Shown here piece after piece: positions 8,864-53,473 of a stretch of DNA of 56,652 bases; positions within the stretch are counted from its first letter, which is position 1, and every line of letters begins with the position of its first letter. A program made the translations under genes and the position numbers. The notes beneath the pieces were generated by a model. That model was not told the origin of the DNA. It did not search any database and worked only from the letters and a program-made list of their open reading frames with translations. The DNA comes from an uncultured Candidatus Bathyarchaeia archaeon. GTDB taxonomy: Archaea > Thermoproteota > Bathyarchaeia > Bathyarchaeales > Bathycorpusculaceae. The DNA is taken from contig CAZWPI010000001.1 in NCBI GenBank assembly GCA_964636055.1, positions 1 through 56,652 of the forward strand, written 5' to 3'.

Positions 8864-8936
8864 AGCCCGGTGGTGTAGCGGTCAAGCATAGGGGCCTCTG
8901 GAGCCCTCGACGAGAGTTCGAATCTCTCCCGGGCTA
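8864..8936 (+). tRNA. tRNA-Gln (anticodon CUG)
   Basis: 73 nt folded by hand: acceptor AGCCCGG/CCGGGCT, D arm GTGT-AGCGGTCAA-GCAT, anticodon arm GGGGC-CTCTGGA-GCCCT, T arm GAGAG-TTCGAAT-CTCTC, discriminator A; no encoded CCA. Confidence 0.9.
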
Positions 8937-9724
8937 CTTTGTCCCGAGCTTGTGTTTATCATGTTTTGCTGGTTGTTTTCGCGGATTTCTTTTATCATTT
9001 GTTCCCGCAGAGCTGTTGTAAGCTGGGAGAGCTGATGGTTTTCGATTTGGCTTTGGTTGATTATGGTCATGTTTGGTCTGGTTAGGGCGTCGCGGGTTAA
9101 GATTTCTTCGGGGTTGAGTCCCCATGCGCGCATGATTTCTTTGAGGGCGTCGATTTTGGTTATTCTGGTTTTTGGTTGGATGCTTAGTCCTGATGATAGG
9201 TATATGCCTCTTAGGAATTCGGTGCCTTTCATTTTGATGTCGTGGTAGGTGCTTATGGTGTGTCCCATCATGTATTCGATGTAGTCGCGGTCTACGCCTA
9301 GTGCTGCCATTTGTGTGCGGAAGAATTTGCGTATGCTGTGGGCGCGTAGGTCGTAGCGTCTGCCTATGGGATTGGGGGTTAGGATTCCTGCTTCTATGTA
9401 GAGGTTGTGTATTATGCCGTGGAGTCGGACTGTGGTTATGGTTCTTACGTGTTTGTTGTGTCCGTCGCGGATTAGTGGGGAGTCGTCGCGGATGTTTTCT
9501 GGGGGTGTTCTGCCTCTGTAGCTGCCTTTTCTTCTGCTTTCCACGTATGCTTTGAGGTAGTCTGCGGCTTCTTGGCCTATGAATGTGTCGTAGTCGTGGT
9601 ATTTTCCTTTGGTGATTTCTGCTTCTACGTGGATGTGGATTGGGGTTATGCCTTTTTCGAGGTCGCGTTTGACGTGGCGGTATTGGAGTTTGACGAGTGT
9701 GCCTATGTGAAAGCCTCCTAGCGC
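8882..9724 (-). pseudogene. tyrosine recombinase / integrase, 5'-truncated
   Basis: LRAHSIRKFF...MGHTISTYHD (HxxR, H, Y); frame open only to 9724 with no start codon (track M at 9544 is an internal GTG); 3' end runs antisense into tRNA-Gln. Confidence 0.8.
8923..8937 (+). repeat. att core copy 1 (3' end of tRNA-Gln) TCTCTCCCGGGCTAC
   Basis: direct repeats at 21116, 21272, 22321. Confidence 0.8.
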
Positions 9725-9977
9725 TCACTGTAAGTATACCTCTTCGCGCAGGCAAAATCGCCTCACTTATGTTTTGTCAAAAAAATTACGCGAACTACTT
9801 TGAATAGATTGGGATAAAGTCTTAAAGATATATGCTGTATATGCTGTATACTGTTCTTTAAGGAACCCAAGTTGACGAATCCTATATGTACAAAGCTGAA
9901 AAACGAAATTGATGGAATAATCACCCGCAGCACAACAAAGCTTATTTCGCCACTCTTAATGCTGTTTTATCTTGAAT

Positions 9978-21115: not shown

Positions 21116-21130
21116 TCTCCCGGGCTACCA
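21116..21130 (+). repeat. att core copy 2 (TCTCCCGGGCTAC + CA)
   Basis: 13/13 match to the tRNA-Gln 3' end; discriminator A followed by CCA. Confidence 0.7.
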
Positions 21131-21159
21131 TTGTCTTCTGTTAGTTGGGTTTTTTGTTT

Positions 21160-21198
21160 AGAAGTAGTTGTGAGGGGTTGCTTAGCACAACATCTTCT
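21160..21198. repeat. AGAAGTAGT-family hairpin H4
   Basis: AGAAGTAGTTGTG-13 nt-CACAACATCTTCT (11 of 13 pairs) inside the 145-bp scar. Confidence 0.6.
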
Positions 21199-21271
21199 TA
21201 GGGATTGAGCTGTTTTTTGTGTTTTGGTTTTTGAATTGATTTGGGTTTGTGTTTCAGAAGTGGAAGTTGTC

Positions 21272-21286
21272 TCTCTCCCGGGCTAC
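21272..21286 (+). repeat. att core copy 3 TCTCTCCCGGGCTAC
   Basis: 15/15 identical to 8923..8937. Confidence 0.8.
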
Positions 21287-21815: not shown

Positions 21816-22320
21816 TCATTCTCCCTCGGCGTATTGAATCTTACGAGATAGTTTTATTTAAACTTCTCGTTACAAATGCAGTGAAAGTTGGAGGTACAAC
21901 AATTTAACATTAGAACAATGGAACAGTAGAACAAAACAACACTTTGAGGTTTCGATGTCAAACTTGCTTACAATCTGAAGATACTTGGAGTGAGTTGAAT
22001 GTGAGACGATAAATTCTAAGCAAAAATGGAAACTTGGGCAATATTTGCTGAGAATAAAATAGCAGCTAATTTGTTTTTTTGGGGGTAATCGCGAAAAGAT
22101 TGACATTTGAGAGGGTCATGATTTTTTTACGAATCCATTTTGGTTCGGGGCCGTCATTCTTGTGCAGATTATTTAGAAATCATATCAGGAGAATAACGTG
22201 TTGGCCAAAATTCTCGAACTCTCGCCTGAATAGCGAAAATGCGAGTAAAATCTATTCGTTTCGATCGCAATCAAGCTAGTTCTTGCTCGCACATTGATAG
22301 GATGCGAAAAAGTTTGAAGC

Positions 22321-22348
22321 GAGTGTTTGAAGCTATCCCGGGCTACCA
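22321..22348 (+). repeat. att copy 4: diverged T-arm + acceptor 3' strand of tRNA-Gln plus CCA
   Basis: GAGTGTTTGAAGCTATCCCGGGCTA matches tRNA 8912..8936 at 21 of 25 positions; followed by CCA and a T-rich tract. Confidence 0.7.
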
Positions 22349-26846: not shown

Positions 26847-26908
26847 ACTGCCGAGAGCACGACCGCAACTCAGCTTCTCCGTCAAACATGAAAAAACATG
26901 TTGTTTAG

Positions 26909-27017
26909 TTTATATAAGGGGGCTATAGTCTTTTCCGAGCCGATAGCCAGCGGTAGTCTAAGTAGCAGTTTTATCTATTTATAGGGGGGTATAGACAAAA
27001 AATCGCACAACAGTTCA
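26909..27017 (+). repeat. twin-box element copy 1 (two TATA-like + G-run + CTATAG boxes 68 nt apart)
   Basis: TTTATATAAGGGGGCTATAGTC ... ATTTATAGGGGGGTATAGAC AAAAAATCGCA; near-identical ends to 51518..51628; upstream of rpl22. Confidence 0.8.
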
Positions 27018-27228
27018 GCGCACAACCAACTGCAACAGGCAACAACCAAGCGTTTTTCGGAAAAACTATAAAAGACAAAGACGGAACCTATAAACCGTAC
27101 ACCTCACGTTCCGAACAGTCCCGCACACGGGACTACACACACTTCAGCGTAACCCAAACTAGTTTTGATACGGAAAGCCATATAAATCGCCATTACGCTG
27201 TTGAAATGCGCAGTCGGAGAAATGTAAA

Positions 27229-27717
27229 ATGCCAAAATGGGGATACTCCATAATCGAAGAAGAACTCGACCTAGAAAAAACAGCGAAAGCCAGCGGCAGA
27301 GAAATCAGAGTATCCCACAAGGCAGCCCGAGAAGTCTGCCGAACAATCAAAGGCAAAACCCTAAACAACGCAAAAGCATACCTAAGAGATGTTATAGACA
27401 AGAAAAAACCTGTTCCCTTCCGAAGATACAAAAAGAAACTCGGACACCGCCACGGCATAGAAAAAGCCTTCGCAGGAAGATACCCAATAAAAACAGCACA
27501 ACAAATCCTACACGTGGTCGAAGCCGCAGAAGCCAACGCAGAAAACAAAGGACTAGACGTAGACAGACTTCGCATACTCCACGCAGCCGCCTACCCAGGA
27601 ACAAAACTTAAACAGTACACACCAAGAGCCCACGGAAGATCCTCACCAAAATACGAAACCACAACCCACATCGAAATCTTCCTAGAAGAAAAACCAGGAC
27701 AAGGAGAAACACTCTAA
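27229..27717 (+). CDS. rpl22: 50S ribosomal protein uL22
   Basis: 162 aa; ASGREIRVSHKAAREVCRTIKGK...KKPVPFRRY pattern; operon position. Confidence 0.93.
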   Translation: MPKWGYSIIEEELDLEKTAKASGREIRVSHKAAREVCRTIKGKTLNNAKAYLRDVIDKKKPVPFRRYKKKLGHRHGIEKAFAGRYPIKTAQQILHVVEAAEANAENKGLDVDRLRILHAAAYPGTKLKQYTPRAHGRSSPKYETTTHIEIFLEEKPGQGETL

Positions 27718-28574
27718 TGTCCATCGTAAAACGATTCATAACCGAATCCATCAAAAAAACAGAAATCGACGAATTTCTGCAAAAAAAACTTGAACGCGCT
27801 GGCTATGGTGGAGTTGACATCTCCAAGACGCCCTTGGGAACGCACGTGGTAATTTACGCCATGCGACCTGGCATAGTTATAGGACGTGGCGGAGAAACAA
27901 TAAAAGACCTCGCCACCACTTTAGAAGAAAACTTTAAGGTTTCAAACCCCCAAATTTCTGTTTCAGAAATCGAGGTCCCTGAATTTAACGCTTTTGTTGT
28001 TGCATCCCGCATCGCTTCTGCCCTACAAAGAGGCGTTCACTTCAGACGCGCTGGTTTTTGGGCTCTGAACCAAGTTATGGATGCAGGAGCGTTAGGCGCA
28101 GAAATCGTGATAAGCGGCAAGCTGCGAACCGAAAGGGCACGTTTCGAAAAGTTCCGAGCAGGCTACTTCCCAAGATGTGGCGATGCCGCATTGAGGTATA
28201 TGAAAAAAGCCGAAGCTCACGTTCAACTCAAACCAGGCATAATCGGTGTGAGAGTTAAGATAATGCCTCCAGATGCACAGTTTCCAGACAAAATCCAAAT
28301 CACCGAGGAACTGCCGCCTGAGGAAATTGAGGAAAAAGTAGCAGAAAAAGAGGAAAAAATAGAGGAAACTTCAAAGCAAAAAGTGAAGGTGGCAGAACTG
28401 CCTGAAGAGCCAACTGAAGCAACTGAAGAAAAGACAGAAGCAGCGGAAGAAGAAGCTGAAACCTCAGAGTCATTAGAAGAGGAAATAGCTGAAGAGACAA
28501 CCGACGAACAGGCTGAAGAAACACTGGCAGAAAACGTGAAAGAACCAGCCGAAGAAAAGGAGGTAAAAGAGTAA
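27717..28574 (+). CDS. rps3: 30S ribosomal protein uS3 with ~85-aa acidic C-terminal tail
   Basis: KH-domain region IVIGRGGETIKDL; GAEIVISGKL; E-rich tail. Confidence 0.93.
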   Translation: MSIVKRFITESIKKTEIDEFLQKKLERAGYGGVDISKTPLGTHVVIYAMRPGIVIGRGGETIKDLATTLEENFKVSNPQISVSEIEVPEFNAFVVASRIASALQRGVHFRRAGFWALNQVMDAGALGAEIVISGKLRTERARFEKFRAGYFPRCGDAALRYMKKAEAHVQLKPGIIGVRVKIMPPDAQFPDKIQITEELPPEEIEEKVAEKEEKIEETSKQKVKVAELPEEPTEATEEKTEAAEEEAETSESLEEEIAEETTDEQAEETLAENVKEPAEEKEVKE

Positions 28575-29885: not shown

Positions 29886-30596
29886 ATGCAAGCAACAAAA
29901 CCCGTAAAAGACCCGCGAAAACAGCGCAAACGGCTCTTTAATGCGCCTGCTCACTTGCGCCACAAGTTTATGGCGGCTCCTCTCGCGCCAGAACTGATCT
30001 CGTCAAGAGGTGTTAAGACTCTTCCAGTCCGGAAAGGCGACACCGTTCGTGTAATACGTGGAGACCACACGGGCTTCGAAGGAAAAGTCAGCCGGGTAGA
30101 CTTGAAGAGGTACCGCATATTCCTTGAGGGCTTAACACGTGAGAAGGTTGACGGAACAAACATATTCGTTTCAGTGCATCCGTCGAAGGTCTTGATAAAG
30201 AACCTGAAGCTTGACGACAAGTGGCGAAAAGCAGTTGTTGAAAGCAAGAAGGAACTGGCGGCACCCAAGAAAGAACCGGAAGCGGTGAAAGTAGCGGCGA
30301 AGCCCGCGAAGAAAGTGAAAGCTGTGAAAGCGAAAGAAGAAAAACCTGTTAAAAAACCGAAAGCCGCAGCCGTAGCAGAAGAGAAACTTCCAGAAAAGAA
30401 GGAGGTAGCTAAACCTAAAACAGTTAAGAAGAAGCCTGCTGCAAAAAAGAAAAAAGAAGAGAAACCAGTTGCGAAAAAGAAAGTGACACCTGTGGCTAAA
30501 AAGACGCCTCTTGAAAAAGAAAAGAAATCTAAGGCAGTGAAGAAAGCACCGACCAAGCGAAAGACCGCAGCTTCGAAAAAGGAAGGAGGAACGTAG
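29886..30596 (+). CDS. rpl24: 50S ribosomal protein uL24 with ~120-aa Lys/Ala/Pro-rich C-terminal tail
   Basis: KOW region LPVRKGDTVRVIRGDHTGFEGKV; tail of AKPAKKVKAVKAK type. Confidence 0.9.
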   Translation: MQATKPVKDPRKQRKRLFNAPAHLRHKFMAAPLAPELISSRGVKTLPVRKGDTVRVIRGDHTGFEGKVSRVDLKRYRIFLEGLTREKVDGTNIFVSVHPSKVLIKNLKLDDKWRKAVVESKKELAAPKKEPEAVKVAAKPAKKVKAVKAKEEKPVKKPKAAAVAEEKLPEKKEVAKPKTVKKKPAAKKKKEEKPVAKKKVTPVAKKTPLEKEKKSKAVKKAPTKRKTAASKKEGGT

Positions 30597-33036: not shown

Positions 33037-33662
33037 TGTCAGAAAAAAAAGTATCCCTATCGCAAAAGGCGCTGAAAGCGAGAAAACGCGTCAAAAAGAA
33101 AAAACCAGCCTTCGTTAGGCCAGAAAGCTGGCGATACGTTAAATTGAAAGAAAGCTGGCGTAGACCCCGTGGATTAGACAACAAGATGCGTCGGAAGATT
33201 AAGGGGTGGCCGCCATCGGTCAGTGTTGGCTATAAGGGACCAAAAGGAGCTAGGGGGCTTCACCCGTCTGGATACAGAGAAGTTTTGGTGCATAACGCAA
33301 AAGAGGTATCTAGTGTTGATCCGAAATCTGAGGCTGCGCGAATAGCCCACACGGTTGGTAAGAGAAAGCGGGCGCAGATTATAGCTGAAGCTAAAAAACG
33401 CGAGGTCTTCGTTTTGAATTTTACACCAGTTCAAGAATTGGTCGAAAAAGAAGAGGAGAAACCAGCGGAAGAAGAGGAAAAACCTGAAAAGCCAGCCAAG
33501 GAAGAGAAGAAACCTGTCAAAGAAAAGGAGAAGCCGAAACGCAGATCTGCAGGTAAAACGAAGGCTTCCCAAAAGGAGCAAAAGGCACCAGCTAAAAAGA
33601 CTGAGAAGCCAAAAAGGGCACGCAAGAAAGCTAAGGCTGAGAAAGGAGCTGAAAAACAATGA
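33036..33662 (+). CDS. rpl32e: 50S ribosomal protein eL32 with ~75-aa K/E/P-rich tail
   Basis: SWRRPRGLDNKMRRKIKGWP...GLHPSGYREVLVHN. Confidence 0.9.
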   Translation: MSEKKVSLSQKALKARKRVKKKKPAFVRPESWRYVKLKESWRRPRGLDNKMRRKIKGWPPSVSVGYKGPKGARGLHPSGYREVLVHNAKEVSSVDPKSEAARIAHTVGKRKRAQIIAEAKKREVFVLNFTPVQELVEKEEEKPAEEEEKPEKPAKEEKKPVKEKEKPKRRSAGKTKASQKEQKAPAKKTEKPKRARKKAKAEKGAEKQ

Positions 33663-35846: not shown

Positions 35847-36066
35847 CCTTCTTGCCGTTTGCAGCGGTGCTTTCGGCGCCCAAGAGTCATTGGTTGCATC
35901 AGCAGGTGATACTTTACTCATACTTATCCCAAATGTGCTAGGCTGTTTCTGCTGTAAAAGGGTTTTTGTCAAGGTTTCTTGGCAAACCGCCTATTTGGAG
36001 CCTAATAACAATTCTATGCAGAAACGATAGAGGGGAAAGGGTCTATCCGCGCTTGATGTTGCCACC

Positions 36067-36098
36067 TTTATAAAAGGGAGGGGGTCTAGTCTCCGAGC
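36067..36098 (+). repeat. partial twin-box element (box 1 + CCGAGC) upstream of acs
   Basis: CTTTATAAAAGGGAGGGGGTCTAGTCTCCGAGC resembles 26909..26940; weaker G-run box at 36026..36047. Confidence 0.6.
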
Positions 36099-36284: not shown

Positions 36285-38243
36285 ATGTCTGAAACAAATT
36301 TACCGTTCAACGAGAAAATCTGTCCAAATAACACGCAACCCTCTTCCGGAGAAAAACGCCGCCAAGAATGGGAAAAATCAATAAATAACCCCCATGAGTT
36401 CTGGGCTGAAAAAGCAAAAGCTATCGACTGGTTCAAACCATGGGACAAAGTGCTTGACGACTCAAACCCGCCATTCTACAAATGGTTCCAAGGCGGAATC
36501 CTCAACATATCACACAACGCTCTGGATAGGCACGTGAAGACCCCCAAGAAAAACAAGCTCGCCTACATCTGGGAAGGAGAAATGGGCGAAGTCAAAACCT
36601 ACACTTACAACCAGCTTTACAGCGAGGTCAACAAACTCGCCAAGGTCTTCAAAGACTTCGGTCTCAAAAAAGGTGACCGCGTAGCCGTTTACCTGCCTGT
36701 AATTCCTGAACTGCCGATAACTCTTCTTGCAACGGCACGTATAGGCGGAATCCACACTGTCGTCTTCTCAGGCTTCAGCGCCGAAGCCTTGGCAGATAGA
36801 ATACGCGACTGCGAAGCAAAAATCCTCGTAACCGCAGATGGATCATACAGACGCGGAAAGATCATCGCAATAAAAGACAACGCAGACCGCGCACTGCAGA
36901 ACACGCCAACCGTGGAAAAAGTCATAGTCGTAAAACGAACATGCCAGGACATCCAGATGAAGGATGGCAGAGATGTCTGGTACCACGACGCACTCGAACA
37001 AGCAGGAGCAAACGCTTACGTTCCACCCGAACCCATGCAAGCCACAGACCCACTGTTCATACTCTACACTTCAGGCACCACAGGCAAACCAAAAGGTGTC
37101 CTACATGGAACAGGCGGCTACACCGTCTGGGCATACTGGACCCTCAGATGGGCTTTCAACCCGAACGACGACGACATTTGGTGGTGCACCGCAGACATCG
37201 GCTGGATCACCGGGCACACCTACAACGTTTACGCGCCACTATCACTCGGCATAACATCGCTGCTTTTCGAGGGCACACCTGACTACCCAGCGCAAGACCG
37301 CTGGTGGGACATCATCGAAAGACACGGCGTAACCATACTCTACTCAACGCCTACAGCGGTCAGAATGTTCATGAAATTCGGCGAAGAATGGATAAACAAA
37401 CACGACCTCAGCACCCTACGCATACTGGGCACAGTCGGCGAACCCATAAACCCCGAAGCCTGGAAATGGTACTACCGCGTAATCGGAAAAGAAAAACTCC
37501 CCATAATCGACACTTGGTGGCAGACAGAAACAGGCGGCTACATGATCGCACCGCTAGCAGGAATAGACTTGGTTCCGCTTAAACCCGGCTCAGCAACATA
37601 CCCGCTGCCAAGCGTCCAAGCAGAAGTCTACGATGAGAAGGGTCAACCCGCACAAGCAGGAAACAAAGGCTTTCTCGTAATCAAAACAACATGGCCAGGA
37701 ATGCTGCAAACCCTTTGGAAAGACCCTGAACGGTTCAAGCAGACATACTTCGGAAGATGGCCCAACGTCTACTACACCGGAGACTACGCAGTCAAAGACT
37801 CAGAAGGCTACTTCTGGCTCCTTGGAAGGGCTGATGAAGTCCTCAAAGTAGCAGGACACCGCATAGGCACAGTTGAGCTTGAAAGCGCTTTGGTTTCGCA
37901 CCCAGCAGTTTCAGAGGCAGCAGTCATGGGAAAAGAGGACGCAGTGAAAGGCGAAGTGCCAGTAGCGTTCGTAGTATTGCGAAGCGGCTTCTCCCCCTCA
38001 GAGGAACTGCGCAAGGAACTCGTAAAACACATAAGAACAACAATAGGTCCGATAGCTACACCAGACGCCATCGTGATGGTCAATAAGCTGCCGAAAACAC
38101 GCAGCGGAAAGATCATGCGCAGAATACTCAAAGCTGTAATAGTTGGAGCACCTTTAGGCGACATATCCACGATAGAAGACGAAGCCTCTGTGGAAGACAT
38201 AAAGGCGACGTACGAAGAGTTGCGAAAGCAACTATCACAATAG
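36285..38243 (+). CDS. acs: acetyl-CoA synthetase (AMP-forming)
   Basis: 652 aa; YTSGTTGKPKGV, WWQTETGG, YTGDYA, LPKTRSGKIMRR motifs. Confidence 0.95.
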   Translation: MSETNLPFNEKICPNNTQPSSGEKRRQEWEKSINNPHEFWAEKAKAIDWFKPWDKVLDDSNPPFYKWFQGGILNISHNALDRHVKTPKKNKLAYIWEGEMGEVKTYTYNQLYSEVNKLAKVFKDFGLKKGDRVAVYLPVIPELPITLLATARIGGIHTVVFSGFSAEALADRIRDCEAKILVTADGSYRRGKIIAIKDNADRALQNTPTVEKVIVVKRTCQDIQMKDGRDVWYHDALEQAGANAYVPPEPMQATDPLFILYTSGTTGKPKGVLHGTGGYTVWAYWTLRWAFNPNDDDIWWCTADIGWITGHTYNVYAPLSLGITSLLFEGTPDYPAQDRWWDIIERHGVTILYSTPTAVRMFMKFGEEWINKHDLSTLRILGTVGEPINPEAWKWYYRVIGKEKLPIIDTWWQTETGGYMIAPLAGIDLVPLKPGSATYPLPSVQAEVYDEKGQPAQAGNKGFLVIKTTWPGMLQTLWKDPERFKQTYFGRWPNVYYTGDYAVKDSEGYFWLLGRADEVLKVAGHRIGTVELESALVSHPAVSEAAVMGKEDAVKGEVPVAFVVLRSGFSPSEELRKELVKHIRTTIGPIATPDAIVMVNKLPKTRSGKIMRRILKAVIVGAPLGDISTIEDEASVEDIKATYEELRKQLSQ

Positions 38244-46259: not shown

Positions 46260-47594
46260 CTAGTCACATTGAATTTTTCTGGTTCTTCTCTTCCTTACAA
46301 TTATAACCGCAAACAAGACTACGACCATAGAGGCAACCAACGCAATTATTAGCAATTGGTCAGAAAACTCTGGAACCGTGGAAGACGAGGAACTAGCAGG
46401 AGTTGGACTAGGCGAAGACGACGTAGGTGAAACATTCAAGGCTTTAACGGTGCCACCCTCGGAACCTACGTAGACGACGTCTCCAATAACAGCAGGAGTT
46501 GAATCAATCCCACCGCCAGCGTTATAACTCCAAAGTAAATCGCCGTTAGCAGCATCCAGAGCATAAACGTTGAAATCCATGGAGCCAAAGTAGACCACGC
46601 CGGCGACGACAACAGGAGATGACAACGCGTCTTCGCCGACATACGATTTATATTCAACATAGTCTCCTAAGGTGTAATTCCAGATTTCCTCGCCGTTTGC
46701 TGCATTTAAGGCATAAACATTGCCGTTGTCTCCGCCTATGTATACCACGCCATCTACGACAGCTGGAGACTCTGAGCCTAAAGGCGCTGTAGTACAGTTC
46801 CAGATTAGGGCGCTGGTTGCAGCATCCGCAGCGTAGACAATTCCAACTCCAGGATTCCCCTCACTGATGGCTACGTAGACTACGCCGCCTTCAACAGTTG
46901 GAGACGAATAAACACACCCGTCTGTGCTGTTAACACTCCAGAGTTTGTGGCCATTAGAAGCATCCAAAGCATAAGTCAGGCCGTCCTCTGACCCGAAGTA
47001 GACTACACCGTTGACAACTGTAGGAGGAGAACTAACCCCAGAGTGGGGAGCAATCCATTGAGGCACCCCCCAGTCGAGAGCAGTAGAATTCCATAGTTGG
47101 ACGCCGTTGGAAGCGTTCAAAGCATAAACGATACCGTAGTTCCATGTGCCCACATAGACTACGCCGTCGACGACAGTTGGAGAAGTAGTGTACGCATAAG
47201 TGGAGTAATTCCAGAGTTGAACGCCGTTAGCAGCATCCAAAGCATAGACGCACCCGCCCGCGGCTTCTGAGCTTACGTATACTACGTTGTTGACAACAGT
47301 AGGAGACGAAGCATACGAATTAATCCCGCCACCGCCTGGAATGCAATTCCAGAGCTGGACGCCGTTAGTTGCGTTCAATGCATAAACGGTGCCGTTATAG
47401 GTGCCGATGTATAATACTCCGTTAACAACCGCAGGAGACGATCCAACCGTGTCGCCAGTAGGATACCACCAGAGTAGCGTGGGAACAAGCGTCGAACTGC
47501 CTTTTTCCGCGTTCACAAACGGAATCAAAACTGAGCTGGAAACAAAAATCATGCAAAATACTGCTGCTACCATATGAAACTTGTTCATGTGCAT
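46260..47594 (-). CDS. secreted PQQ-like beta-propeller repeat protein with PEF-CTERM-like anchor
   Basis: signal peptide; ~8 repeats NGVQLWN...SSPTVVNGVVYVG...VYALNA; C-terminus S/P linker, VPEF, TM helix, RKRRTRK. Confidence 0.85.
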   Translation of the reverse strand: MHMNKFHMVAAVFCMIFVSSSVLIPFVNAEKGSSTLVPTLLWWYPTGDTVGSSPAVVNGVLYIGTYNGTVYALNATNGVQLWNCIPGGGGINSYASSPTVVNNVVYVSSEAAGGCVYALDAANGVQLWNYSTYAYTTSPTVVDGVVYVGTWNYGIVYALNASNGVQLWNSTALDWGVPQWIAPHSGVSSPPTVVNGVVYFGSEDGLTYALDASNGHKLWSVNSTDGCVYSSPTVEGGVVYVAISEGNPGVGIVYAADAATSALIWNCTTAPLGSESPAVVDGVVYIGGDNGNVYALNAANGEEIWNYTLGDYVEYKSYVGEDALSSPVVVAGVVYFGSMDFNVYALDAANGDLLWSYNAGGGIDSTPAVIGDVVYVGSEGGTVKALNVSPTSSSPSPTPASSSSSTVPEFSDQLLIIALVASMVVVLFAVIIVRKRRTRKIQCD

Positions 47595-51152: not shown

Positions 51153-51517
51153 ATATGCAACAAAACCGCACACATCACTCTCCCTTTTTTTATAGCTATT
51201 CATCTATCCAAGCAAAATGGGACTAAGAGGGCTTTGCACAGAGATGCGCTAACAGCAATAGTCGTTAGCAACTCGAAAATGTCATCTTTTCTCCTACATT
51301 TCGCGTGCAAAGCCCCAGCAAACCCTTCATTTCTAACTGCATTGTTATTTTTTTCTCAGCTACTTACTTTCGTTCTGCCGTTTGCAGTACTTGGCATCAA
51401 TAGACAATGCCAAATTAGCATACTTATCACAGAAAAGCGTTAGTCACTGATTCTGTTCGGGGACATTTCTTCACAACCAAAACTACAGAAAAAATAGCAG
51501 TTCAGAACAAACCCTAC

Positions 51518-51628
51518 TATATATAAGGGGGCTATAGTCTTTTTCGAGCAGCTAGCCAGCGCTGGTCCAAGCTTCAGTTTAATCTATTTATAGAGGGGGT
51601 ATAGACAAAAAATCGCATAACAGTCCAG
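51518..51628 (+). repeat. twin-box element copy 2
   Basis: CTATATATAAGGGGGCTATAGTC ... CTATTTATAGAGGGGGTATAGAC AAAAAATCGCA; lies between two convergent genes. Confidence 0.8.
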
Positions 51629-51705
51629 TAAGAGCACATCTTGTAACTTGTCGTGATTTTTGGTTTTCAATTTGTTTTTTGGCGGGTCTGTGGTTTTTTG
51701 TGGGT

Positions 51706-52275
51706 TTATGGGATTGGGATTTCCCAGTAGCTGATTATGTCGCCTTTTACCCATCTGCCTCCTAGGCTTTTGACGACGTTGTTGATTTCGTTCCATTCTG
51801 CTTTCAGGTATTCGATGGGTTTTACCACCACGAAGTCTCCGTCCACCGTGAAACTTAACAGCTCACGTTGCTCTGGGCTGAATTCCTCTTCCACATCTCT
51901 TACGTCCTGGTTTGCTTGAACACGCGGTTTTTCCGCAGGCTTAGCAGCTGTTGCAGGCTTAGGTTGCAGAACTGTGCTTTTTGCAGGCTGAGCTTCCGCC
52001 TTGACGCTTTTCGTGCTTTTCGCGTATGCCAACTTGAACTCTGGAATCGGATAAGCGTCCGCAACATCCTCAAAACCGTCGCTCCTCACGACCGCAGACA
52101 CCTGCCCAGAAAACAGGTCGTACTTGATGCCTAAAAGTTCCACGTCGCTTGGCAGGTTAGACGCGCAAGTTTCCGCTTTCCCCTGCAGCGCTTGCATGAG
52201 GAATTCAGGGTTTAACGTTATTATTCTCGTTTTCATGGTTTCCACGCTCAGAATCGCTTTCTTAACTGACGACAA
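51706..52275 (-). CDS. hypothetical protein (189 aa)
   Basis: ATG ORF with central A/P/K-rich linker; its 3' part has a strongly A+C-rich sense strand. Confidence 0.55.
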   Translation of the reverse strand: MSSVKKAILSVETMKTRIITLNPEFLMQALQGKAETCASNLPSDVELLGIKYDLFSGQVSAVVRSDGFEDVADAYPIPEFKLAYAKSTKSVKAEAQPAKSTVLQPKPATAAKPAEKPRVQANQDVRDVEEEFSPEQRELLSFTVDGDFVVVKPIEYLKAEWNEINNVVKSLGGRWVKGDIISYWEIPIP

Positions 52276-53092: not shown

Positions 53093-53326
53093 GCCTTGAC
53101 TTTTTGTTAGTGAAAATTCATAACCCTTATAAGTGTATAGTATCGTAAGTCTTATGACGCTGTTAGGAGGGCAAATTGAGGTTGAAGGCTACACCCAACA
53201 AGCCAACAGAATTTTTCCGTTCTCGAAGCCTTCTCCTTTCTCCTCGATGACGGATTGGCCGTTGGAAGCCAACAAACAATGACAAACGCCCTCCAACACA
53301 CAATTACACAAAAAAGCTGAAAAACC

Positions 53327-53473
53327 ATGACCCAAGAAAACACACTACACCACCAAGCCAACAAAGAAATGACCAAATTCAAAAAAACAATGGAAGAACT
53401 ACACCTCCTCAAACGCGTCTCAAAAGACCTAAAAAACTACAGAAAAATGATCAAACTCAAAAAATACGACTAA
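53327..53473 (+). CDS. possible small basic protein (48 aa)
   Basis: hand translation MTQENTLHHQANKEMTKFKKTMEELHLLKRVSKDLKNYRKMIKLKKYD inside an A+C-rich patch; alternative minus ORF 53152..53412 looks compositional. Confidence 0.25.
   Translation: MTQENTLHHQANKEMTKFKKTMEELHLLKRVSKDLKNYRKMIKLKKYD

Follow-up and report, generated by a model that had tools for sequence, protein, structure and literature searches.

What could hold one strand of a ribosomal-protein gene to codons ending almost exclusively in A or C, and then release it abruptly in the middle of the next gene? This question is raised by a 56,652-nt stretch of DNA (hereafter, the window; contig CAZWPI010000001.1 of assembly GCA_964636055.1) from an uncultured Candidatus Bathyarchaeia archaeon, which carries a long ribosomal-protein operon with rpl22 and rps3 (27717-28574) as its first genes. 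At the protein level, rps3 shows 97% identity to its counterpart in an uncultured Bathyarchaeia genome, and its best 80 loci are nearly all labelled Bathyarchaeia or Bathyarchaeota. A preliminary description of the window noted an extreme A+C-rich patch on the plus strand, extending from the end of a twin-box element through the leader and rpl22 into rps3, together with similar patches elsewhere, and proposed recombination with a differently composed donor, a strand-specific mutational process or assembly chimerism as alternatives to codon selection. Here we describe that the bias begins at a TATA-plus-core element, runs from it in one direction over a limited length, and is independent of the orientation of the genes on its way.

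The patch itself proved to be real. Over 26997-27795, the plus strand contains 0.684 A+C (A.417, C.267, G.175, T.141) against a window-wide mean of 0.513 (standard deviation 0.066 in 200-nt windows), and the value is likewise 68% when the patch is cut off at 27773. In rpl22, the bases at third codon positions are distributed as A.55, C.36, G.05 and T.04, and when ATG, TGG and stop codons are omitted, 148 of the 160 informative codons of this gene end in A or C, as do 18/18 within rps3 codons 1-19 and 115/184 within rps3 codons 20-208. The leucine codons TTA and TTG are absent from the rpl22 patch (0/12) compared with 80/184 across the remaining operon, indicating that synonymous first positions are also affected. 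A likelihood change-point method applied to nine operon genes placed the break after rps3 codon 19 (27771-27773), with an A/C-ending fraction of 0.93 before and 0.55 after it (log-likelihood gain 58.6), and beyond codon 19 the fraction stays at 0.55-0.63. The abrupt end inside rps3 was thus correctly recognized, but its position, estimated at about 27790, lay about 20 nt too far to the right. The supposed inclusion of the whole leader holds for 26997-27160 (A+C 0.68-0.73) but not for the last 68 nt (27161-27228; 0.51), which are nearly invariant among relatives. An assembly chimera or sequencing artefact has a negligible probability as the cause, because separate assemblies of three runs from a single sediment study yielded contigs (27297-27914 and 27176-28337) that span the edge unbroken at even depth, confirming continuity across 27.7-27.9 kb, while the tract is found in at least ten related species and the pattern recurs in many independent assemblies.

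The tract starts at the 3' end of the twin-box element, the second box of which consists of a TATA box followed by the promoter-like core GGGGGTATAGACAAAAAATC. The element recurs in the window at 51515-51628 with 85-94% identity and is a dispersed repeat, with a word depth 20-45x that of its flanks in four runs and with many different flanks. After an exact-match scan for GGGGNTATAGACAAAAAATC, the core was found in more than 120 metagenome contigs. In all of them it is closely preceded by a TATA-like box and followed by a short conserved stretch, gCACAACAGTTCAG; co-oriented genes begin 40-260 nt downstream. By the usual archaeal spacing, transcription is predicted to start at about 27005-27007, some 8-10 nt past the A-run, and the tract sets in within about 10 nt of this predicted start.

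The relationship between core and composition was analyzed for 120 metagenome loci, which gave 86 clusters after removal of near-duplicates, each locus being oriented with the core on the plus strand and its genes called by a score blind to third codon positions. Plus-strand third-position A+C in the 86 clusters is about 0.50 upstream of the core, 0.58-0.62 at +100 to +300 and 0.68-0.70 at +300 to +800, and is again about 0.50 from +1600 onward. Extreme A/C patches occupy 18-23% of the sequence within 0-1000 nt downstream of the core and 0-2% upstream, and extreme G/T patches are missing altogether at 0-500 nt downstream. In the zone between +250 and +1100, genes co-oriented with the core have a sense-strand A/C-ending fraction of 0.729 against a baseline of 0.555 (21/24 clusters above, p = 4e-5), while genes on the opposite strand have 0.378 (30/35 clusters below, p = 2.5e-7; paired within locus, p = 3.8e-6). 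The shift is equally large for genes of either strand, and does not depend on the coding orientation of the DNA crossed, as is expected for a transcription-associated asymmetry. At four-fold sites, plus-strand A+C is 0.66 in co-oriented and 0.72 in opposite-strand genes, with the composition A about.30-.36, C.36, G.15 and T.13-.18 in both classes.

Both this anchoring at a promoter-like element and the mirror-image G/T-ending patches in genes of the other strand go beyond what the preliminary description had noticed. Pfam-confirmed opposite-strand genes with long G/T-ending runs encode TFB, SecY, a HAD hydrolase and ribosomal protein L1, and the TFB gene contains 200 consecutive codons of which none ends in A or C. 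In two loci (L104 and L105), G/T-ending genes at the far end are accounted for by a second, convergent core. G and T are depleted at four-fold sites in every neighbouring-base context, and for this reason an enzyme-like sequence context was ruled out. A gene for an HMGL-like synthase (L126 2097-3527; also in L143) starts with 70-90% A/C-ending codons and then has none over a run of about 260 codons; the L126 contig stops short of where a convergent core might lie.

Because the bias tracks the DNA strand and the direction of the element, not the sense of the genes, it argues against translational selection and for a polar process on DNA or on the nascent transcript. The ordinary codon bias of highly expressed genes would agree with the concentration of the signal at third codon positions and with the plausibly abundant products encoded just after some cores (rubrerythrin, SUI1 and rpl22), and codon usage under translational selection resembles the tract in its focus on third positions and its preference for C over T and A over G. 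In this case, however, neither expression nor gene sense is followed. Elsewhere in this operon, ribosomal genes have only 28-60% A/C-ending codons (rpl18 0.28, rps5 0.39, rpl19e 0.37-0.38; 28-39% for the distal ones), indicating that high expression does not go with a preference for A/C endings in this genome, and the bias stops inside one of these genes, after rps3 codon 19. In addition, it switches within genes, is not defined on the sense strand but is inverse in opposite-strand genes, includes non-coding leader, and is also carried by a truncated integrase. Taken together, translational codon bias is a highly improbable explanation, and the earlier view that codon selection alone is insufficient is strengthened by the strand dependence at many loci.

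Comparison with orthologues from related Bathyarchaeia, proposed in the preliminary description for the rpl22-rps3 junction, revealed the same tract with different 3' ends. Homology begins at about 26980-27050, that is, at the leader, and from the leader through rpl22 and rps3 the sequence is collinear with that of relatives, at 80-94% identity on either side of the edge. Within the closest clade, the A/C-ending fraction peaks in rpl22 and declines along the operon (in L004: 0.93, 0.78, 0.69, 0.87, 0.77, 0.67, 0.66, 0.47, 0.34), while the profile is flat in more distant Bathyarchaeia. The 5' anchor is common to the relatives and the 3' end is species-specific, being located at rps3 codon 18 (L010), codon 66 (L016), codon 166 (L006) or codons 180-199 (L014, L015 and L008), within the RNase P p29-like gene after rpl29 (L007, L025 and L034), at the end of rps17 (L005), or at rps4e codon 26 (L002 and L004). 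DNA divergence among these relatives is about 15-25%, enough for synonymous sites to have been replaced and for a single past import to have decayed, which indicates that the tract is maintained. Of the 1631 open reading frames (ORFs) present in 87 related loci, only 14 have 82% or more A/C-ending codons: three encode integrases, one is a small viral gene, and the other ten are rpl22 or ribosomal genes next to it. The A/C-ending fraction of rpl22 is 0.80-0.94 in the five relatives with a recognisable upstream core and 0.66 on average in the 71 without it (p = 7e-4).

These comparisons bear directly on the proposal that the rpl22 patch was imported by recombination or gene conversion from a differently composed donor. 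Such an import would fit the sharp 3' edge, the truly foreign nature of the integrase and att patches described below, and a mosaic of third-position identity, which is typically 60-70% but rises to 93% at 27861-27950 in comparison with L011 and to 100% at 28041-28160 in comparison with L010, third-position identity inside the tract being confounded by shared composition. For the rpl22 patch itself we nevertheless consider the import very unlikely: the genes are native and vertically inherited, are collinear with relatives from about 26980 onward, and show similar divergence from the same relatives across the edge; sliding identity revealed no relative whose similarity to the window is higher within the patch than beyond it; the same 5' anchor persists in many species at saturated synonymous distance, where it would decay unless maintained; and the same rule holds for dozens of unrelated genes. 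The mosaic may be of importance for another point. The segments 27861-27950 and 28041-28160 look like short interspecies recombination patches, and, suggestive as this is and no more, such patches may have reset the sequence beyond rps3 codon 19; the change-point of L010 lies at the same place as that of the window.

We favour, with moderate confidence, an element-anchored, one-directional and strand-specific substitution bias, most likely coupled to transcription from the core; of the alternatives raised at the outset, it is the strand-specific mutational process that the evidence favours, the bias following the DNA strand instead of gene sense. That the cause is mutational rather than selective we infer, as we do its enzymology. 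A one-directional process launched at the core would reach about 1-1.5 kb downstream, and the transcript-like strand would gain G-to-A and T-to-C changes, equivalent to C-to-T and A-to-G on the template strand. Amino-acid-altering changes would be purged by protein selection, leaving the imprint at synonymous sites, including leucine first positions, and in unconstrained leader DNA, and co-oriented genes would accumulate A/C-ending codons while opposite-strand genes in the zone would accumulate G/T-ending ones. Deaminated bases might be removed efficiently, by preferential repair, from the exposed non-template strand but not from a template strand that repair cannot reach, or the template strand might suffer more unrepaired deamination, for instance by staying in single-stranded gaps. 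Two other mutational schemes were rejected: deamination of the non-template strand in its classical form, also by transcripts running on from tRNA-Gln into the integrase, has the wrong polarity, and a recurrent double-strand break with two-sided resection fails because no mirror of the tract exists upstream of the core. A stronger proposal, which we put forward only tentatively, is a lineage-specific, targeted, strand-specific mutational process, either deamination of the template strand or repair confined to one side, that would start from the dispersed promoter element and alter all neutral sites over the first 1-1.5 kb of the transcription unit.

Selection at the level of RNA would also be polar with respect to the core. 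The first 1-1.5 kb of core transcripts would be kept poor in G and U by selection on synonymous sites whatever they encode, on the rationale that A/C RNA cannot fold on itself, lacks U-tract terminators and forms fewer G-rich R-loops. It would account for a bias that tracks the direction of the core and not the sense strand of genes, for the onset at the predicted transcription start, and for third positions (0.86-0.93 in strong tracts) exceeding leaders (0.5-0.73). It is hard to reconcile, however, with near-100% fixation over hundreds of sites (200 codons of the TFB gene; 44/44 codons of a small ORF in the window), for which the strength of selection needed per site is implausible, with the equal shift in genes crossed only in antisense, where a benefit is not evident, and with the absence of the tract from most other Bathyarchaeia ribosomal operons, which are surely highly transcribed. 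Because such saturation, including antisense-crossed sites, is difficult to reach by per-site selection, we rank RNA-level selection second and consider it unlikely.

Alternatively, the element might anchor a DNA process other than transcription, for instance a strand-specific nick followed by 5'-to-3' excision of the plus strand, so that the single-stranded minus strand would be open to deamination until the gap is filled. This predicts the sharp start, the single direction, the kilobase scale, an effect regardless of how genes are oriented, and the correct polarity, which matches that of the L and H strands of vertebrate mitochondria (PMC3269012); it would also suit an element that is a dispersed repeat and is often sited where a promoter makes little sense. 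On the other hand, neither a nuclease, a transposase nor terminal inverted repeats are associated with the element, its architecture is that of a canonical archaeal promoter at leader distance from co-oriented start codons, and the effect appears only after a lag of 200-300 nt. Hence we regard such a process as quite unlikely.

Several observations weigh against a transcription-coupled substitution bias. Its polarity is opposite to that of classical transcription-associated asymmetry, and no enzyme pathway for such a reversal has been demonstrated. The activity of the core as a promoter is a prediction, and about two thirds of the cores aim into the 3' end of a convergent gene, which is odd for a strong promoter. 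The effect is uneven, with a median downstream value of 0.68 and values of 0.44 or less in 10% of clusters, and non-coding positions in the zone reach only 0.58 A+C. While the averaged profile fades smoothly, the genome of the window steps abruptly, and a smooth mutational gradient alone does not give the sharp edge at 27773, which probably needs something extra, such as an interspecies recombination patch. A strong rpl22 tract without a recognisable core is present in L005, L002, L034 and L035, and a relaxed search for the core before the integrase genes of viral contigs L081-L087 returned nothing convincing, leaving the integrase signature outside the core rule. Finally, the second core copy of the window (51595-51614, plus strand) is followed by opposite polarity at 51629-51860, an exception to the rule.

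The features of the window are listed in Table 1, and the additional patches named in the preliminary description were all recovered there. The integrase patch ends at 9724, exactly where homology to full-length integrases stops, at residue 197 of about 450, so that this edge is a truncation breakpoint. The fragment, read in the frame of ORF 8882..9544 and not of the longer ORF 8934..9755, has 240/253 A/C-ending codons (95%). Full-length integrases of 450-519 residues occur in viral contigs, and in 5/7 related viral contigs the integrase gene is 79-93% A/C-ending, most neighbouring genes having 0.45-0.76; one small gene in viral contig L087 reaches 0.92. The integrase signature is inherited from the mobile element, and the integrase and att patches are relics of a mobile element whose integrase family carries the same signature. 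Sharply bounded atypical composition, as in islands of horizontal transfer, fits these remnants, the integrase fragment having tRNA att sites, the truncation at 9724 and relatives in viral contigs, and for them, unlike for the rpl22 tract, the proposal of a foreign source is a fitting one. The 3' end of tRNA-Gln is repeated at 21119-21131, 21260-21286 and 22320-22346, an arrangement that points to elements integrated in tandem or within one another in the 8.9-22.3 kb region, with the truncated integrase as the sole remnant, and the att scar between two of these copies is probably the 3' end of another integrase. Within the last 40 codons of gene 51706-52275, 35/37 end in A or C, and the 3' untranslated region (UTR) is likewise biased. 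The patch at 53215 is preceded by a weak look-alike promoter (a weak TATA plus TGTATAGTATC at about 53128-53150).

Table 1. Position and properties of the A+C-rich tracts and associated elements in the window.
Feature	Position	Strand	Remarks
tRNA-Gln(CTG), integration target	8864..8937	+	3' end repeated at ~21.1, 21.27 and 22.3 kb
Tyrosine-integrase pseudogene, 5'-truncated	8938..9724	-	Residues 197-443 of full-length protein; abuts tRNA-Gln
att scar	21131..21272	-	Minus-strand A+C 0.77; between two tRNA-Gln 3'-end copies
Twin-box element	26906..27018	+	113 nt; two TATA-like boxes, each followed by GGGGG(C/T)TATAG(T/A)C
Promoter-like core GGGGGTATAGACAAAAAATC	26985..27004	+	Just downstream of TATA box TATTTATA
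Leader	26997..27228	+	Conserved block 27161-27228 holds second TATA-like box and GGAG before ATG
rpl22 (uL22)	27229..27717	+	Entirely within tract; Pfam Ribosomal_L22, E = 3e-28
rps3 codons 1-19	27717..27773	+	Final part of tract; change-point directly after
Remaining rps3	27774..28574	+	Ordinary composition; A/C-ending 0.63 in codons 20-208
Box-A-like promoter TTTATAAAAGGGAGGGGGTCTAGTC	36066..36091	+	Upstream of acs
acs (acetyl-CoA synthetase)	36285..38243	+	Milder tract; 476/617 codons A/C-ending (77%)
3' end and 3' UTR of gene 51706-52275	51629..51860	-	A+C-rich on minus strand
A+C-rich patch	53215..53473	+	53215-53470 A+C 0.72; 48-codon ORF 53327-53473, 44/44 A/C-ending

Some properties of the element and its surroundings were observed in addition. 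For about two thirds of the twin-box copies (the window and L088-L207), the stop codon of a convergent gene lies 20-60 nt past the A-run, and as the A6 run reads T6 on the complementary strand, the twin-box could also be the terminator of the convergent gene. A second repeat, tatttgg..cctaatag..aattc.ttgcagaaa..gggg..ggtctaycc, is located just upstream of many cores, including the acs promoter (with the repeat at about 35985-36050) and those of L098, L100, L104, L125, L130, L132, L146, L152 and L158. Some cores that precede unrelated genes are followed by a conserved leader motif, CAAGAGCACA..GTAAC..GTTAYCAATTTGYTT, in which GTAAC and GTTAC may pair to form a hairpin (window 51629-51690, L096, L104, L114, L147 and L165).

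The rpl22 leader (27056-27228) contains blocks invariant in 13-14 species (AAACTATAAAAG, CACCTCAC and CTAGTTTTGATACGGAAAGCCATATAAATCGCCATTACGCTGTTGAA), within which two more TATA-like boxes are found, and a small hairpin (GTCCC.../...GGGAC) in which four sequences show CG-to-UA covariation; a Rfam scan at gathering thresholds detected tRNA only, indicating that the leader is not explained by a known RNA family. Within rps3, synonymous sites of codons ~45-75 (27850-27950) are nearly invariant in ten species, including the T-ending codons CCT, GTT and CGT, which points to a nucleotide-level constraint on this segment. The Glu/Lys/Ala-rich low-complexity tails of rps3 (28300-28574), rpl24 (30230-30596) and rpl32e (33420-33662) show a local rise of A+C that stems from amino-acid composition and lies outside the tract. 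Gene 46260-47594 on the minus strand contains seven to eight internal repeats with a spacing of about 120-155 nt and would encode a repeat-domain protein.

Among known systems, somatic hypermutation of immunoglobulin genes by activation-induced deaminase (AID) is linked to transcription, sets in a few hundred nt past the promoter and fades by 1.5-2 kb, but it is somatic, affects cytosine only and acts on both strands. The spatial profile of the archaeal tracts is alike, whereas a deaminase is not implicated in them and a context preference was not seen. The tracts are best regarded as a probable variant of transcription-associated strand asymmetry, secure as an observation and uncertain in mechanism. 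With the asymmetry of bacteria and mammals they share a strand bias visible at neutral sites and, if the core is a promoter, tied to the direction of the transcription unit. In the classical form the non-template strand becomes G+T-rich (PMC10030826), whereas here the presumed non-template strand gains A+C, and the effect does not reach beyond the first 1.5 kb or so, approaches saturation at some loci, and belongs to one promoter-like element in one lineage. The same pattern at synonymous sites, with A and C up and G and T down, is found in vertebrate mitochondrial DNA, which has an A+C-rich L strand and a G+T-rich H strand, and there it has been ascribed to the complementary strand, whose C and A residues deaminate during its single-stranded phase (PMC3269012). 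The mitochondrial asymmetry is, however, genome-wide and arises from strand-displacement replication, whereas the tracts described here are many, local, chromosomal, about 1-1.5 kb long and anchored at an element.

In full-text literature searches, we found no account of such tracts in archaea. If the favoured explanation is true, uncultured and globally abundant archaea would possess a near-saturating asymmetry of reversed polarity that is linked to transcription, or at least anchored at an element, which would imply an undescribed imbalance of DNA damage and repair around archaeal promoters and would allow active promoters of uncultured archaea, and the direction in which they fire, to be located from sequence only. 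A further prediction would be that polarised polymorphism spectra differ inside and outside the tracts. Measures of expression based on codon usage, tests of horizontal transfer and phylogenies based on synonymous sites are confounded in these genomes. If, furthermore, the process is a targeted mutational one, it would represent a natural germline counterpart of promoter-anchored hypermutation, and the local codon usage of these archaea would be set by promoter geometry, not by translation.

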